Assembly: GCF_018977255.1 (NCBI RefSeq)
Contig: NW_024704762.1
Location: forward strand, 6,634,001-6,698,000
Direction of reading: 5' to 3'
Source of the DNA: Callorhinchus milii
Lineage: Eukaryota
Length of the DNA stretch: 64,000 nucleotides
Shown here: positions 58,886 through 64,000 of the stretch, in pieces
Position numbering within the stretch: the stretch's first letter is position 1
Layout of the letters: each line of letters opens with the position of its first letter
Notes under the pieces: model-generated
Told to the model about the DNA's origin: nothing
The model's input: the letters and a program-made list of their open reading frames with translations, nothing else
Databases searched by the model: none
Program-made: the position numbers and the translations under genes

Positions 58886-60187
58886 GAGTGAGTGAGTGAG
58901 TGACGGTTGGTCGGGGCGGGGCCGTTGCGGGTGAGTGACAGTTCTCAGGTCGAGGCGGAGCCGCTGGGGGTGAGTGACAGTTGGTCGGGGCGGGACCGTT
59001 GCGGGTGAGTGACAGTTGGTCAGGGCGGGGCCGTTGCGGATGAGTGACAGTTGGTCAGGGCGGGGCCGCTGCGGGTGAGTGACAGTTGGTCAGGGCGGGG
59101 CCGTTGCGGATGAGTGACAGTTGGTCAGGGCGGGGCCGTTGCGGGTGAGTGACAGTTGGTCAGGGCGGGGCCGTTGCGGATGAGTGACAGTTGGTCAGGG
59201 CGGGGCCGTTGCGGATGAGTGACAGTTGGTCAGGGCGGGGCCGTTGCGGGTGAGTGACAGTTGGTCAGGGCGGGGCCGTTGCGGGTGAGTGACAGTTGGT
59301 CAGGGCGGGGCCGTTGCGGATGAGTGACAGTTGTCGGGGCGGGGCCGCTGGGGGTGAGTGACAGTTCTCGGGTCGGGGCCGCTGGGGGTGAGTGACAGTT
59401 GGTCGGGGCGGGACAGTTGCGGGTGAGTGACAGTTGGTCAGGGCGGGGCCGTTGCGGGTGAGTGACAGTTGGTCAGGGCGGGGCCGTTGCGGGTGAGTGA
59501 CAGTTGTCGGGGCGGGGCCGCTGGGGGTGAGTGACAGTTCTCGGGTCGGGGCCGCTGGGGGTGAGTGACAGTTGGTCGGGGCGGGGCCGTTGCGGGTGAG
59601 TGACAGTTGGTCGGGGCGGGGCCGCTGGGGGTAAGTGACAGTTGGTCAGGGCGGGGCCGTTGCGGGTGAGTGACAGTTGTCGGGGCGGGGCCGTTGCGGG
59701 TAAGTGACAGTTGTCGAGTCGAGCCGGAGCCGCTGAGGGTGAGTGACAGTTGGTCGGGGCGGAGCCGTTGCGGGTGAGTGACAGTTGCTCGGGGCGGGGT
59801 CGTTGCGGGTGAGTGACCGTTATCGGGGCGGGGCCGCCGGGGGTGAGTGACAGTTTGTCGGGGCGGGGCCGCTGGGGTTGAGTGACAGTTGGTCGGGGCG
59901 GGGCGGGGGCCGCTGGGGGTGAGTGACAGTTGGTCGGGGTGGGGCGGGGCCGTTGCGGGGTGAGTGACAGTTGGTCGGGGCGGGGCCGCTGGGGGTGAGT
60001 GACAGTTGGTCGGGGCGGGGCCGCTGGGGGTGAGTGACAGTTGGTCGGGGCGGGGCCGCTGGGGGTGAGTGACAGTTGGTCGGGGTGGGGCGGGGCCGCT
60101 GGGGGTGAGTGACAGTTGGTCGGGGCGGGGCCGCTGGGGGTGAGTGACAGTTGGCGGGGGGGCTCGGCAGAGGTAAGTGACAGTTGG
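58886..60187 (+). repeat. ~32-bp GC-rich minisatellite (gggtgagtgacagttggtcggggcggggccgttgc), ~40 copies
   Basis: Directly visible tandem array immediately upstream of the C19orf25 first exon region. Confidence 0.95.
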
Positions 60188-60555
60188 AGGGATGGAATAG
60201 GTGAACCGGCGCCATTTTCTTTTGCCGGAGCGAACGGATTCCGCTCCCGCGGGGAGAAATCTATTCCGTCAGTTGTCTGTTTGGTGGGCTCGCCGCCGCC
60301 GCCCCTCCACACTCGGGGCTCGCTGACTGAACCCGTGGGTGGAGGAGGCCGAGTCTCGTCAGTCGGTTTGACCGAGGTGAGGTGTGGTGAGGTGAGGTGG
60401 AGGGGGGCGGAGCGCCGGCCAATGGCGGACGCGGCATTTGAATGCTGAGAGACGGTTTACTCATTAAACTCTCTCTGTCTGACCCGGGGGCAGGTTGTGC
60501 GGTGGTGGTGGTGGTGGTGGTCGTGCAGGTGGTGGAGGTGGAGGTGGTGGTGGGA

Positions 60556-61613
60556 ATGACCGCTCGAAGCAGGAAGCGACCAGTGCTGCCGACTAGGCCC
60601 GAACCGCCCTCTGTGTCCGAGGCCTTGGCCGACGTGTCAGGCGCCTCCGCCGGCGACCCGGTCTTCAGTTCCCCGGCGGAAGGCGGCGCAGGTATCAGAG
60701 CTGCAAATCGTCCCGTTTCCCCCCCCCCTCCCCTCCCTCACCCCCCCCCCTCCCCCCCCCTCACTCCCTCACCCCCTCAGGTGGTGTTTGCACTGTGGCT
60801 GTTAAGCGCTCTTCAACCTCAAACGCTCCATAAGAGGCTTCAATATGTCGCTGACCTCAACCTGTCGTGCGGTCAACTGGGAAACCAGATGTCACTGATG
60901 ATGATGATGATGATAAAATAACAATGATAATCCTTACCACATTATGTAGGGCTCTGCATTTTGTGGGCTCTGTAATCTCCCTCGACGTTGTGTTCCGGCG
61001 CTGCTCGGGCCGAACAATGAATCCCACCAATAAATATACAAAGAGCAAATAAATGTGGGTCACTCACCTCATGGCTGATTGCAGGACATTGCCGCGTGCG
61101 AATTGGGTGCCGCACCTGCCTGCGAAGGCCCGGTTACTACTACCCTTTCAGCAAAGTCCTGTGAAGTCCTAAGAAGGCGCTGTGTAAAAAAAAATGAAAG
61201 GACGATGATGATTGTTCTTATTGTTACTTGTAAGCCTTACCGAGGAAGCTGTGCGCATGAGCGAATGGCAGACGGTAATCCAGAAACTTACTGTAAAGTT
61301 ACAATACTGTTAAAATACACCAAGGTGCCTTTACAACACCTGAGAAACACCAACTTGAAAAGCAGCTTCTGTTCCTACTGTTTATTGTGTCGTTCCCATC
61401 GTTTTCTCAGAATTTCGGGCTCCAGGGAGAACAGAAGAGTTGATGCCAGACCTGGAAACCCAGTACCAGCAAAGCCGATCGTACGTTGAACTGAATAGGC
61501 GATTACAAGAGGAGCGGAATGTTCTGGCAGCTCGATGTGAGGCGCTGAGGAAAGCTGGAGAGGAACTAGACCTGAGCATTTCCGAAATTAAGGACAAGGC
61601 ATTTCAAAACTAA
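60556..61613 (+). CDS. C19orf25: UPF0449 protein C19orf25 homologue, 2 coding exons, 112 aa
   Basis: Exons 60556-60691 and 61411-61613: MTARSRKRPVLPTRPEPPSVSEALADV...DPVF | ...YQQSRSYVELNRRLQEERNVLAARCEALRKAGEEL. This matches recalled human C19orf25 motifs (LPTRPxPP, DPVF, YQQSR). Confidence 0.9.
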
Positions 61614-61680
61614 TTTGATCTGTATTTGTAGCCAACTATAAATGATCCTGCTGATAACAGCGGGTATTCTATTCTAACAG

Positions 61681-62124
61681 ATGGCATCAAACATTGACAC
61701 GGTCCCAACGTTGGAGTATGATTTTTCTCTCTGGTACTGTGAGATGGATGAAGAGGTGGCATTGACCATCTCCAGAATGCTGCACCAGAAAGGCTACAAG
61801 GGCTTCGTGGAGCGTCAAGACCAAGTAATGGGAGGCCTGCAAATAACTGAAGTTACCGATGTCATCCAACAAAGTAAATCCACCATTGTTTTATTATCTA
61901 AAAGCTCCTTGGACAGTAATTGGTGTTGGAGTGTCTCCAAGTGGAACTTTCAACACTATATTGAGCAGGGACGGAAGGTTATTCCAGTCTATGTTGACAT
62001 TCAGAAAGAACAGAGCCCATGTTTTCTAAGGCACCTAACCGGACTTGGTTACGGCACAAAATTCTTCCGAAAGAGACTTCTAGACAGCTTGGAAACCCGC
62101 AAGAAAACTGTAAAGCCGCGTTGA
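61681..62124 (+). CDS. Intronless TIR-domain-only protein (147 aa), TIRAP/TICAM-like adaptor candidate
   Basis: TIR layout: box1-like YDFSLWY, helix DEEVALTISRML, GYKGFVERQDQVMGG (BB loop), IQQSKSTIVLLS, SNWC, KVIPVY, PCFLRHL, FFRKRLLDSL. Preceded by acceptor ttctattctaacag|ATG and followed by AATAAA at 62128-62137. Confidence 0.85.
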   Translation: MASNIDTVPTLEYDFSLWYCEMDEEVALTISRMLHQKGYKGFVERQDQVMGGLQITEVTDVIQQSKSTIVLLSKSSLDSNWCWSVSKWNFQHYIEQGRKVIPVYVDIQKEQSPCFLRHLTGLGYGTKFFRKRLLDSLETRKKTVKPR

Positions 62125-62774
62125 GCAAATAAATAAACCGTTTGAGTGTAGCTGGTGTGAAATGGTGTTTAAGACGAGGTATAGTTTGGGTGAATTTGAC
62201 ACAGATTTTGATCAATATCTTTGGAATTAGGAATTCTCTGCTACAAACTTGTTGAAACGGAATCTCTAAATTCTTGGAAAAGGGAATTAGATGCCCAAAT
62301 ATAAATTGGTTTCACTCTAAACTGTACCCAGTTGAGATTCTTTCTCTCTACCCCTCCCCCTATACCAAATTCATGGTGGTTTCATGCACAAGGATAGAGG
62401 CAATCTGAAAGCTTGGAGCAATGGTTCAAAGCTTGGAATGTCCATGAAGTGTTAGATGAAGCATTGCTAAAGATTCTACTATTGGTTTTACGGGTAAAAT
62501 TATTGATCATAATGAATATTTTCAGATTTGTGTTGAAGGTAAAATGCTTATGTGGTGGATCATTTAGTTTGTATCGTATACGTATGCTGTGGGAAGTGTG
62601 TGCGTCATTCCGAGTGAGCGTGCATTGTAGCAGCACTTGGTCACAGTTCTTCCCAAATCTTAAATTCAGACAAAATTGAAAGCACAGAATTTAGTGCAGA
62701 ACAACAACACAATGACGAAAGTATGAGTTTCGTTTCTTGGCTTATTTCCTCATTCCATGTGAACTAATTAATTT

Positions 62775-62958
62775 TAGCTCCATCCCTACTTTCAAATCCT
62801 TCGTAACCCAATTTCAAATCCCGCCTAAAGGCCTTCCTTTTCGATCTTGATTACTGTCACCTCCCTCTGCCCTTGGCTCGGGGGTCAAACTCCACCACTG
62901 TCAAGCGCTCCGGGACGCTACCCCGTGTGAAGGCCGCTTTATAAATGCAAGTTGTTGT
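62775..62958 (+). mobile_element. L2 3' tail fragment
   Basis: ttcaaatcccgcctaaaggccttccttttcgat (FKSRLKAFLFD), then tail agcgctccgggacgc...gtgaaggccgctttataaatgcaagttgttg. Similar tails lie near 2781-2915, 22010-22170, 33350-33490 and 37050-37260. Confidence 0.7.
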
Positions 62959-64000
62959 AGCTGCAGCGCTCGTCTGTGAGTGCGAATCCAGGATAAAATT
63001 GTCACCTCTAGGTTTTAGTCACACTTGAAGTTGCTATTTCATTTTAAAATGGTATGGTTAGATGCTGGATTGATGTGGACTCCTGGTTTGTGACAGGCAT
63101 TGCAACTAAACAGTGAAACATGAGACCAGTTCTAGTTTCTTATGTCTTTTAATAAGGAAAAAACATTGAGGTGCGCCAGAGTCCCTGGTAAGAACAGTTA
63201 CAACATACGTAGCTCTGACTTGAGTGGGACACGTTATTTACATCTTTCTTTCAGTTCAGCCCAAAAATGCCTTTTAAAAATAGAAAACTTTTTTTTTCTG
63301 ACCAGGTGACCAAAGGCTCCAGAATCAGGAAACATCTAGATAACAGTGCAAAACACAAAGTGAAATAATTCTAGTTCAACACTAGGGTTTCAGCAAAACA
63401 TACAGACAATTAAAAAGGAATTCTCAAGTTGTTACTCTCAATACAGCAGCAAATATTAGACATTGTTCCACTGGATTAGCACTCCGTGAGTGAGTTGTAT
63501 AGCAGAGGTGTGTAATAGCATTTGTATCCAGTGATGTGAAATGTAAGGAACTGTAGAAATAAGCAGAGCTGATGTTAATAATAATAATAATCCTTGCATT
63601 TGACGTCATCATTGAGCGGTCTCAAAGCGCTTCACAGAATATACTATAAAGTGAATTGATTGTATATTTTGTGGGTGAAATGCGGCGCCCAGCAGTGTCC
63701 CACAAAGTCGTGGATTGAGTGACCAAATTATTTTTAATGTGTAATTGTAAGCCACTTGGAACTGAGTGATCAGGTCCTGGGATATCTTGCTGCCAAGTCC
63801 CTGCCTGAAGGTACTTATTGGTCAATATTTCTATCATAAAATCTAAGTGTGTCGTTCAAGGCCGTAACAGCTCAGGGTTTAGCTGATGTCTGCAACCTGC
63901 CTAATATCAGTTGAACTGACTCGGTAACGATGGCGCTGGTTATATCAAGCAGCTCATGCTGGACAAAAATGATAAATTGCATATTAGCAGAATTGCATAT

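Follow-up and report, generated by a model that had tools for sequence, protein, structure and literature searches.

Can one transcription unit of the elephant shark (Callorhinchus milii) specify two unrelated proteins, C19orf25 and a TIR-domain protein, and if so by which route and to what end? Within the window (the whole stretch of 64,000 nt analysed here), the first-pass annotation had placed a 147-aa TIR ORF on the forward strand 67 nt 3′ of the C19orf25 stop codon, with neither AATAAA nor ATTAAA in the gap and with tandem AATAAA beginning 3 nt past the TIR stop, an arrangement that was fully borne out (Table 1). The C19orf25 coding sequence (60556-60691 plus 61411-61613) specifies 112 aa, identical to the database protein of C. 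milii (P0088). As also proposed, an in-frame TAA (61675-61677) upstream of the TIR ATG, separated from it by CAG (61678-61680), blocks read-through, and the C19orf25 coding donor, which follows 136 coding nt, lies in phase 1, which puts a splice from there to the TIR ATG out of frame. The donor after 60376 (GAG/GTGAGG) is in use, since RNA contigs depart from the genome at this point and continue in exon 2. Placement of the TIR ATG exactly at a 3′ splice site held only in part: CAG does precede it, but as an acceptor it is only moderate and is used by no contig. YAG directly precedes 33 of the 970 ATGs in the window (3.4%), the TIR ATG among them; its pyrimidine content ranks second of 20 last-exon YAGs (0.64, against 0.86 at the used acceptor, 61410), and it is one of 7 of those 20 with an upstream branch-point-like motif, which each of the three YAGs in the spacer (61631, 61660 and 61680) has. 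The hydrophobic 11-codon ORF just ahead of the TIR ATG was considered as a relic transmembrane helix, for which the starts of relatives give no support.

Table 1 Features of the C19orf25/TIR locus (positions in the window).
Feature	Position	Strand	Evidence
Non-coding exon 1 of the shared transcription unit	60178-60376	+	Contig pieces 60178/60191-60378 in X1, X2, X3; 5′ edge set by the outermost RNA contig rather than by start mapping
Two-codon uORF in strong context (purine at -3, G at +4), putative function	60192-60200	+	
Exon 2 with length-variable (GGT)n run and C19orf25 start	60494-60691	+	Putative acceptor 60493/60494
C19orf25 (UPF0449) coding part 1, 45 codons + 1 nt	60556-60691	+	PF15136, E 4e-10 (Pfam)
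Intron 2, GT..AG, 719 nt	60692-61410	+	Joint in 7/7 RNA-like runs
C19orf25 coding part 2 and stop, start of last exon	61411-61613	+	PF15136, E 3e-11 (Pfam)
67-nt spacer without poly(A) signal	61614-61680	+	YAG candidates 61631, 61660, 61680
11-codon ORF in the TIR frame, weak context	61642-61677	+	Ends 3 nt before TIR ATG
TIR-only ORF, 147 aa, single exon	61681-62124	+	Pfam, fold model, family
Two overlapping AATAAA (62128, 62132)	62128-62137	+	Sequence
Proximal poly(A) site	62150	+	25 non-genomic A, one contig of run X5
Longer 3′ extension in some runs	62151-62800, ~120 nt beyond	+	Single contigs in X2, X3; separate contig in X1

Eight of 15 listed sequencing runs were compared, comprising seven RNA-like runs from three studies and the DNA-like X11; none of the runs is registered as RNA, and RNA status was assigned as a guess of the tool that gains support from the intron-2 joint, which is present in all seven and absent from X11. 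At the joint of exons 1 and 2, RNA contig pieces break off at 60378 and pick up again at 60561, and between these points 67 letters are replaced by 25, 55 or 58. Length differences in exon 2 among RNA contigs are multiples of 3, and a tandem repeat lies at 60501-60553 (TRF). In six of the seven RNA-like runs a single contig extends from exon 2 past the end of C19orf25 and on into the TIR ORF (in the seventh, X1, one contig spans 61408-62139), and contigs are continuous across 61681 in all seven. In X5 (one contig, one run) a tail of 25 A that is not genome-encoded follows 62150, where the C19orf25 transcript had been expected to end, while contigs of X1, X6 and X7 end untailed at 62139, 62117 and 62099, respectively. 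Both ORFs are thus found on one mature, polyadenylated mRNA (crossed in six of seven runs, A-tail in one), as represented by contigs assembled from short reads, which do not in themselves prove that the two come from one molecule. Between runs the TIR ORF differs at two single bases, by a synonymous change and by R98Q.

The idea that one promoter and one poly(A) site yield two proteins therefore stands as regards the shared promoter and poly(A) region. Its exon-skipping part did not gain the same backing: the joint from 60376 to 61681 is absent from the four runs with a complete joint list and is not among the joints listed for the other three RNA-like runs, although contigs drop rare forms and a minor skip form could be missed. 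A separate TIR promoter in intron 2 or exon 3, sharing only the poly(A) site, is very unlikely; low-depth unspliced intron-2 contigs, from 60929/60933 on, occur in X1 and X2, but fit a retained intron or pre-mRNA equally well, no contig starts near 61600-61681, and intron 2 is uncovered in X3, X5, X6, X7 and X10. That the C19orf25 and TIR proteins both derive from one transcription unit is highly probable.

Membership of the TIR superfamily is indicated by both Pfam profiles, TIR_2 (E 7e-12) and TIR (E 1e-11), which score above their curated cut-offs (46.3 bits against 28 and 45.2 bits against 21.3), and by the predicted structure, a TIR fold (pLDDT 82.8, pTM 0.78) with TIRs as its Foldseek matches; the ESM Atlas returned generic TIR clusters only. 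The best profile and fold matches are TIRs of adaptors and receptors (MyD88, Hydra TRR-2). NADase TIRs (SARM1, plant and bacterial) carry a catalytic glutamate in helix αC, within WCxxE. The family of the elephant shark protein lacks it, with Val or Ile at this column in 26 of 26 aligned members; Glu is found two residues further on in 16 of 26 (Lys in the elephant shark protein), and an invariant Trp occupies the serine column of F-I-S-Y in the 26-row alignment. No Death domain was matched in the elephant shark protein or in 28 relatives scanned, and the C-terminal tail is basic throughout (K+R 3-13 versus D+E 0-4 in 26 of 26). A non-enzymatic adaptor consisting of a TIR domain only is the likely identity of the protein.

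Its relatives form a distinct vertebrate clade (support 100/98) of lamprey-like, shark, amphibian, reptile and bird sequences, with no named teleost or mammal. There are 32 clusters at E<=5e-38, with 45 invariant columns among the first five homologues, and a clean gap surrounds the family: 11 of 1,633 representatives reach E<=1e-30 and the next lies at 2.6e-21. The top non-family sequences (E 1.7e-19 and below) are amphioxus KAI8508085.1 and the TIR domains of TIR-STING proteins, neither of which has a supported sister grouping with the family in either tree. Origin as a detached TIR of TIR-STING was rejected, since STING_LBD occurs in 8 of 61 scanned hits and neither tree groups these with the family. 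TICAM1 and TICAM2 make up a separate 100/100 clade (a sister relation to the TIR family is possible, p-AU 0.39), and the TIRAP-like sequence does not group with the family either. The MyD88 gene of the elephant shark itself was not located, and MyD88 is included in neither tree. One bird member carries the database label ‘MYD88 protein’, likely a mislabel. No second copy of the TIR ORF was found in the genome search (a lower bound), and no paralogue or remnant lies within 100 kb of SRP19 (best domain E 0.7).

Judged by amino acid identity, the TIR ORF is conserved as strongly as C19orf25 (48-50% versus 41-46% to reptiles; TIR 49.7% to turtle and 47.9% to snake, C19orf25 45.5% and 40.9%). Long-term constraint at the protein level and retained linkage to C19orf25 are supported, and, on the strength of this conservation, a protein is very probably made from the ORF. 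It is extremely improbable that the ORF is an untranslated 3′ UTR relic or codes for the C-terminal half of a protein in which C19orf25 and TIR are fused. Some lineages do look degenerate (Xenopus laevis OCT97526.1 and two 97-aa forms diverging past residue ~75), but from sharks through to birds intact frames of 137-169 aa retain the invariant columns. Fusion is the form of the gene models of king cobra (ETE61120.1) and green turtle (EMP24146.1), both whole C19orf25 plus TIR, and of blackbird (XP_054506032.1), the N-terminal ~50 aa of C19orf25 plus a linker, which is not shifted C19orf25, plus TIR. However, the cobra and turtle models join the ORFs at different places, as predictors bypassing a stop presumably do, the two frames differ in elephant shark, where the in-frame TAA lies ahead of the ATG, and relatives also exist as separate proteins of 110 aa and 146-168 aa.

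Linkage across distant lineages is apparent from the chimaera together with gene models, rather than mRNAs, of a snake, a turtle, a monitor lizard and a bird. For the monitor, Komodo model P0049 carries, ahead of TIR, the final exon of C19orf25 translated in a shifted frame (77.5 bits, against 17.8 for the best of 60 shuffles), the single positive among 11 N-terminal extensions searched for shifted-frame C19orf25. In Eretmochelys and Caretta the TIR and C19orf25 proteins have consecutive accessions. A search for C19orf25 homologues to pair with the TIR homologues returned only C. milii's own protein (1/1).

The TIR protein would likely be a separate product, likely of a minor splice form joining non-coding exon 1 to the TIR start, although we put the odds of exon skipping as the route at no better than even, with translation of a two-ORF mRNA less probable. 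Skipping is favoured because in the two-ORF mRNA a scanning ribosome would meet five AUGs before that of TIR (the C19orf25 start and four further ones), because upstream AUGs are not depleted (4 seen versus 6.0 expected, P 0.28) and because the TIR AUG has a pyrimidine, not a purine, at -3. It is also favoured because ORFs longer than ~55 codons are predicted, in the available text of PMC4705651, to block reinitiation, and because alligator, Mauremys, Podarcis lilfordi and Pelobates have TIR-only products annotated as ‘C19orf25 isoform X1’, these being names only, two of the four possibly copied by similarity. Back-translation of relatives for an upstream acceptor gave 5 of 13 (three of them turtles) that exceed every window of the TIR body, and only 3 of 13 (two of them parrots) that exceed shuffles at P<0.05.

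Translation of TIR from the dominant C19orf25 mRNA by leaky scanning or reinitiation, that is, from a truly bicistronic mRNA such as has been proposed at RPP14/HTD2, is possible, if less probable. No spliced form other than the two-ORF one was seen (7/7 RNA-like runs), the ORF sizes (112 + 147 aa) are near those of RPP14/HTD2 (124 + 168 aa), and shark-like TIR proteins come from contigs of 904-1116 nt, two-ORF contigs here measuring 926-1016 nt. The C19orf25 AUG has no G at +4 and three of the four intervening AUGs are in weak context, but two internal Met codons are kept in reptile C19orf25 proteins, which, like the undepleted AUGs (P 0.28) and the pyrimidine at -3, argues against leaky scanning or reinitiation. 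In favour of the bicistronic route, the mRNA opens with the two-codon uORF and the 11-codon ORF stops 3 nt ahead of the TIR AUG; RNA structure in the spacer (61614-61680) is ordinary (z -1.26), and an IRES-like structure there was rejected on this value. The full account that we prefer, a conserved TIR ORF giving a separate protein by way of a minor skip form and acting as a non-enzymatic adaptor of the TLR pathway, we regard as evenly poised between right and wrong.

Such a protein would bind other TIR domains through its surface, would reach membranes with the aid of its basic C-terminal tail, and would bridge or dampen Toll-like receptor signalling rather than transmit it, because it contains neither a death region nor a RHIM or TRAF-binding one; this combination of roles is somewhat probable. 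That it binds C19orf25, which would tie Golgi-to-ER retrograde traffic to innate signalling and explain the shared gene, is unlikely. Complex prediction lends this weak support (score 0.59, against 0.26 for the highest of three controls; at least 71% of contacts recur between runs, and partner pLDDT is 80 or higher). Of 78 solved complexes, 51 reach the mark applied, as do 2 of 108 mismatches; at scores of 0.60 or less it is reached by only 5 of the 78 solved complexes and by all four passing mismatches (of 180). A pass of this kind errs more often than not unless there are prior grounds to expect the pair, and among blind neighbours 7 of 44 pass. According to the available text of a preprint (bioRxiv 10.1101/2024.04.07.588166), human C19orf25 falls in a cluster with USE1, and STING signalling rises when C19orf25 is lost, in keeping with such a partnership. 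However, that work concerns human cells, no human member of the TIR family is named in the clusters examined, and the family does not group with the TIR domains of TIR-STING. The widest reading, of a TIR adaptor dating from the lamprey-shark split, apparently lost in teleosts and mammals, made from the 3′ end of the C19orf25 mRNA, binding C19orf25 and coupling retrograde traffic to TLR or STING signalling in sharks, amphibians, reptiles and birds, is more doubtful still.

Vertebrate TLR adaptors are treated as five, MyD88, MAL, TRIF, TRAM and SARM, in the available text of PMC6043800. The family described here, a further well-conserved one with TIR only, is likely an overlooked immune-signalling adaptor of vertebrates, hidden because annotation files the ORF as C19orf25 3′ UTR or ‘isoform’ or under wrong names. 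In the main texts of the open literature nothing was found on C19orf25 together with TIR, nor any description of the TIR ORF, and none of the listed C19orf25 papers concerns a TIR, as judged from titles and the openings of abstracts. Were the protein an adaptor or damper, models based on mammals and zebrafish would have missed a part of innate signalling in birds, reptiles, amphibians and sharks. The locus would also count among the small number of vertebrate two-protein loci with deep conservation, of the RPP14/HTD2 kind, and C19orf25 knock-outs or RNA counts in these animals would affect two proteins.

Among known TIR proteins, the TIR of MyD88 is the best profile match of the solved structures (E 3.4e-9, TM 0.73), with Hydra TRR-2 and oyster TIR-STING within 1 bit of it, but the protein studied here differs in having no death domain, a single coding exon and ~22% identity. 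TICAM1/TRIF has a long N-terminal domain and a C-terminal RHIM region; the TIR ORF, 147 aa of TIR alone, was rejected as this adaptor, and a TICAM1-like frame of 714 aa lies 3 Mb away on the same contig. TIRAP/MAL has an N-terminal lipid-binding extension. This identity was rejected as well, there being only 12 residues ahead of the domain in the elephant shark protein and, elsewhere (C25:132,924), an exon that we take from its sequence to be TIRAP-like and that does not group with the family. With TIRAP/MAL and TICAM2/TRAM the family shares a composition of little beyond TIR, the absence of a signalling effector region, and a charged stretch possibly targeting membranes. It differs from both in forming its own clade, with motifs YDFSLWYC, EHxDxVAG and WCxRVxEWNL, in the residue ahead of the BB-loop Gly, which is Ala rather than Pro in 24 of 26 members, and in its basic stretch, which is C-terminal, with only 6-17 residues preceding the domain in most cases.

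TICAM2 carries a myristoylation motif at Gly2 (available text of PMC9440496), whereas residue 2 of the elephant shark protein is Ala and none of the conserved starts across the 26 aligned rows is MG, although two of the longer ORF calls open with MG further upstream. A separate TICAM2-like ORF (C1:102.99 Mb; 46% to TICAM1), which starts MGG, led us to reject the TIR ORF as the elephant-shark TRAM of the literature. The analogy to TMED7-TICAM2 drawn in the first-pass annotation is consequently a loose one: in both cases a single-exon TIR ORF is tied to a gene of secretory traffic, but the ORF here is not a TICAM, and TAG is an in-frame GOLD-TIR fusion isoform, as described in the accessible part of PMC9440496, whereas the coding splice from C19orf25 to TIR is out of frame. 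In layout, the closest match to the C19orf25/TIR locus is RPP14/HTD2, for which the available text of PMC4705651 and PMC5932603 describes a small first ORF followed, in the apparent 3′ UTR of the same mRNA, by an unrelated longer one, a linkage that in both cases has lasted hundreds of millions of years. HTD2 occurs in human and is a characterised mitochondrial enzyme, whereas the TIR protein is a predicted adaptor with no named mammalian member.

The TIR-only frame 3′ of C19orf25 lies on the same strand, as the first-pass annotation had described, with a gap of 67 nt free of poly(A) signals. Its further anatomical claims also stand: an in-frame stop closes the sequence ahead of the TIR ATG (TAA-CAG directly precedes it), and AATAAA follows 3 nt past the TIR stop. 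The predicted structure of the ORF is a TIR fold (pLDDT 82.8, pTM 0.78). Judging by the translations, the genes next to the unit are one PCSK-like and one REEP gene upstream and, on the opposite strand, APC2 downstream.

Features of the C19orf25–TIR locus and its surroundings (window positions unless stated)
Feature	Position	Strand	Remarks
Minisatellite	58896-60159		directly 5′ of exon 1; GC-rich, 35-bp unit, 35.6 copies, 88% matches; GC box and donor-like word GTGAGT in every unit
GAG/GTAAGT donor	after 60172		just past the minisatellite
(GGT)n run	60501-60553		5′ UTR, immediately ahead of C19orf25 start; length varies across runs in multiples of 3, by as much as 42 nt less (allele or tiny intron)
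C19orf25 CDS	60556-60691 + 61411-61613	+	112 aa; equals database protein of Callorhinchus milii
TIR ORF	61681-62124	+	147 aa; passes both Pfam TIR cut-offs
High-copy interspersed repeat fragments	62940-62958, 63575-63740		downstream of the unit; depth very high in every run
Open frame, ~45 kb past the window	L041:5616-6320		235 aa; translation resembles a connexin N-terminal half

Contigs from 8 of 15 listed sequencing runs, none recorded as RNA, were compared with the window. The GT..AG joint of intron 2 (60692–61410), which divides the C19orf25 coding sequence, is present in seven (three studies, six samples); X11 lacks the joint and covers the intron, as expected of DNA. In six of the seven intron-spliced runs a single contig links exon 2, across the C19orf25 stop codon, to the TIR ORF, reaching 61856, 62099, 62117, 62150 and, twice, beyond 62800, and one contig of run X1 spans 61408–62139. 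A C19orf25 3′ end had been expected near ~62150, and a contig of run X5 stops at 62150 with 25 A absent from the genome, although this tail is seen in one contig and contigs assembled from short reads are not proof of single molecules. The proximal transcript end thus falls 26 nt past the TIR stop, with a longer end in some runs. Because intron 2-spliced contigs enter the TIR ORF and an A-tail follows at 62150, the ORF is the apparent 3′ UTR of the C19orf25 transcript seen here; that it is driven by a promoter of its own is improbable.

How the TIR protein would be made from this unit was considered along two routes. Splicing from the end of non-coding exon 1 (60376) directly to the TIR ATG (61681) would, as proposed, give a strong start context with a purine at −3, but the junction itself is absent among contig joints: no joint into 61681 occurs in the full tables (four runs) or among the joints listed (three runs), and contigs are unbroken there in 7/7 intron-spliced runs, which speaks against a major skipped form and is compatible with a minor one. 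The hypothetical splice would leave only a two-codon uORF upstream, and the candidate acceptor ranks second among 20 YAGs in the exon (YAG-preceded ATGs by chance, 3.4%). When back-translated sequence ahead of the TIR start was scored for an acceptor in 13 relatives, 5/13 (three of them turtles) exceeded every window of the TIR body and only 3/13 (two of them parrots) exceeded shuffles at P < 0.05. We give exon skipping an even chance. Translation from the two-ORF mRNA, which the contigs carry, is a somewhat weaker candidate: six AUGs precede the TIR AUG (that of the two-codon uORF, the C19orf25 start and four more), with no AUG depletion ahead of it (P 0.28), and C stands at −3. A review (PMC4705651) gives a predicted limit of about 55 codons for reinitiation, yet counts RPP14/HTD2 (124 + 168 aa) among functional bicistronic mRNAs, with a mechanism still uninvestigated; this pair is conserved over 400 million years (PMC5932603). 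Exon skipping and bicistronic translation can coexist.

A profile search with the TIR family returned 32 clusters at E ≤ 5e-38, and in a search of 1.84 billion representatives 11 of 1,633 matches had E ≤ 1e-30, the next being 2.6e-21. Named members come from bamboo shark, newt, two frogs, turtles, snakes, lizards, alligator, parrots, passerines and frogmouth, followed by lamprey proteins sharing family motifs (full-length P0240, 41.7% identity). Among the 25 clusters read and the 32 profile-search rows, none bears the name of a teleost or mammal; many rows lack an organism name and the ORF is poorly annotated, and we infer probable loss in both groups. Seventeen family rows form one clade (support 100/98) branching roughly as the species tree, and nine rows form a clade in a second tree (97/99). 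By identity, conservation of the TIR frame matches or exceeds that of C19orf25 from chimaera to reptiles (49.7 and 47.9% vs 45.5 and 40.9%) and falls below it from turtle to snake (56.8% vs 70.0%). A Met lies at most 19 residues ahead of the first motif in 70/70 stored motif-bearing sequences, which is partly built in, as Met is where ORF calls begin, and for one fused model is a coincidence. That no separate TIR protein exists is the least credible reading. Some lineages show signs of decay: the Xenopus laevis model has gaps, and two 97-aa forms leave the family frame at one common point (P0096, P0100, P0242). The database names of P0064 (Platysternon; ‘breast cancer anti-estrogen resistance protein 3’) and P0091 (Podargus; ‘MYD88 protein’) are likely mislabels.

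Gene models tie the two frames together elsewhere. In king cobra and green turtle the entire C19orf25 is fused to TIR, in red-winged blackbird its first ~50 residues are, and in Komodo dragon the last C19orf25 exon precedes TIR in a shifted frame (77.5 bits vs shuffles ≤17.8; the other 10 N-terminal extensions tested are at shuffle level). The name ‘C19orf25 homolog isoform X1’ is given to TIR-only proteins of alligator, Mauremys, Podarcis lilfordi and Pelobates, and in two sea turtles the C19orf25 and TIR proteins bear consecutive accessions; the two frames have therefore probably been linked since the last common ancestor of jawed vertebrates. Annotation of two Lampetra models (P0093, P0237) joins TIR to SRP19, not to C19orf25, and the lamprey relative may thus sit immediately 5′ of SRP19 on a shared transcript; contigs carrying the full TIR measure 3012 and 3585 nt. 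SRP19 of C. milii lies between an APC and a REEP gene on contig C1, a block paralogous to REEP–C19orf25–TIR–APC2 on C21, the contig of the window; 100 kb near SRP19 holds no remnant of a TIR. The fusion in the lamprey gene models and the position of SRP19 suggest that the block already held the TIR gene when the vertebrate genome duplications took place.

The known adaptors located are encoded elsewhere: identity with TIRAP, TICAM1 and TICAM2 was rejected, given a separate TIRAP-like exon on C25, a 714-aa TICAM1-like frame at a distance of 3 Mb on C21, and a TICAM2-like ORF on C1 that begins MGG and lies 1 Mb from SRP19. This TICAM2-like ORF (L059:1207-1860, ~102.995 Mb), with Gly2, is in this assembly apparently short of ~26 TIR residues including the BB loop, by deletion or assembly error. 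MyD88 is not among the adaptor loci located and is in neither tree. Profile scores place MyD88, Hydra TRR-2 and oyster TIR-STING within 1 bit (38.6–39.6), followed by TICAM2 (35.7) and TIRAP (34.8); a sister relation of TICAM and the family is compatible with the tree test (p-AU 0.39). NADase TIRs carry a catalytic glutamate motif; the corresponding column holds Val or Ile in 26/26 family rows. The Ser column of F-I-S-Y in other TIRs is an invariant Trp, the BB loop reads DxVAG (Ala in 24/26 rows) and C-terminal tails are basic in 26/26. No death domain was found in the ORF. We infer a non-enzymatic protein that would act by TIR–TIR contact and, since it has no effector region, would bridge or dampen signalling rather than transmit it.

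A complex of the C19orf25 and TIR proteins is a lead of low probability. Prediction, made without alignments, scored 0.59 vs 0.26 for the best control (≥71% of contacts shared between runs; partner pLDDT ≥80), weakly supporting contact. Overall, 51/78 solved complexes and 2/108 mismatches reach the mark, but at scores ≤0.60 only 5/78 solved complexes do, and all four passing mismatches (of 180) lie in this range. Human C19orf25 is reported to work with USE1, and its loss to raise STING signalling (bioRxiv 10.1101/2024.04.07.588166).

Full-text searches of openly accessible articles found no published description of the ORF or family. The C19orf25–TIR arrangement is real and conserved; the TIR fold is known; neither the family nor its age or link to C19orf25 appears to have been described. 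The two-ORF layout itself is of the same known kind as RPP14/HTD2.
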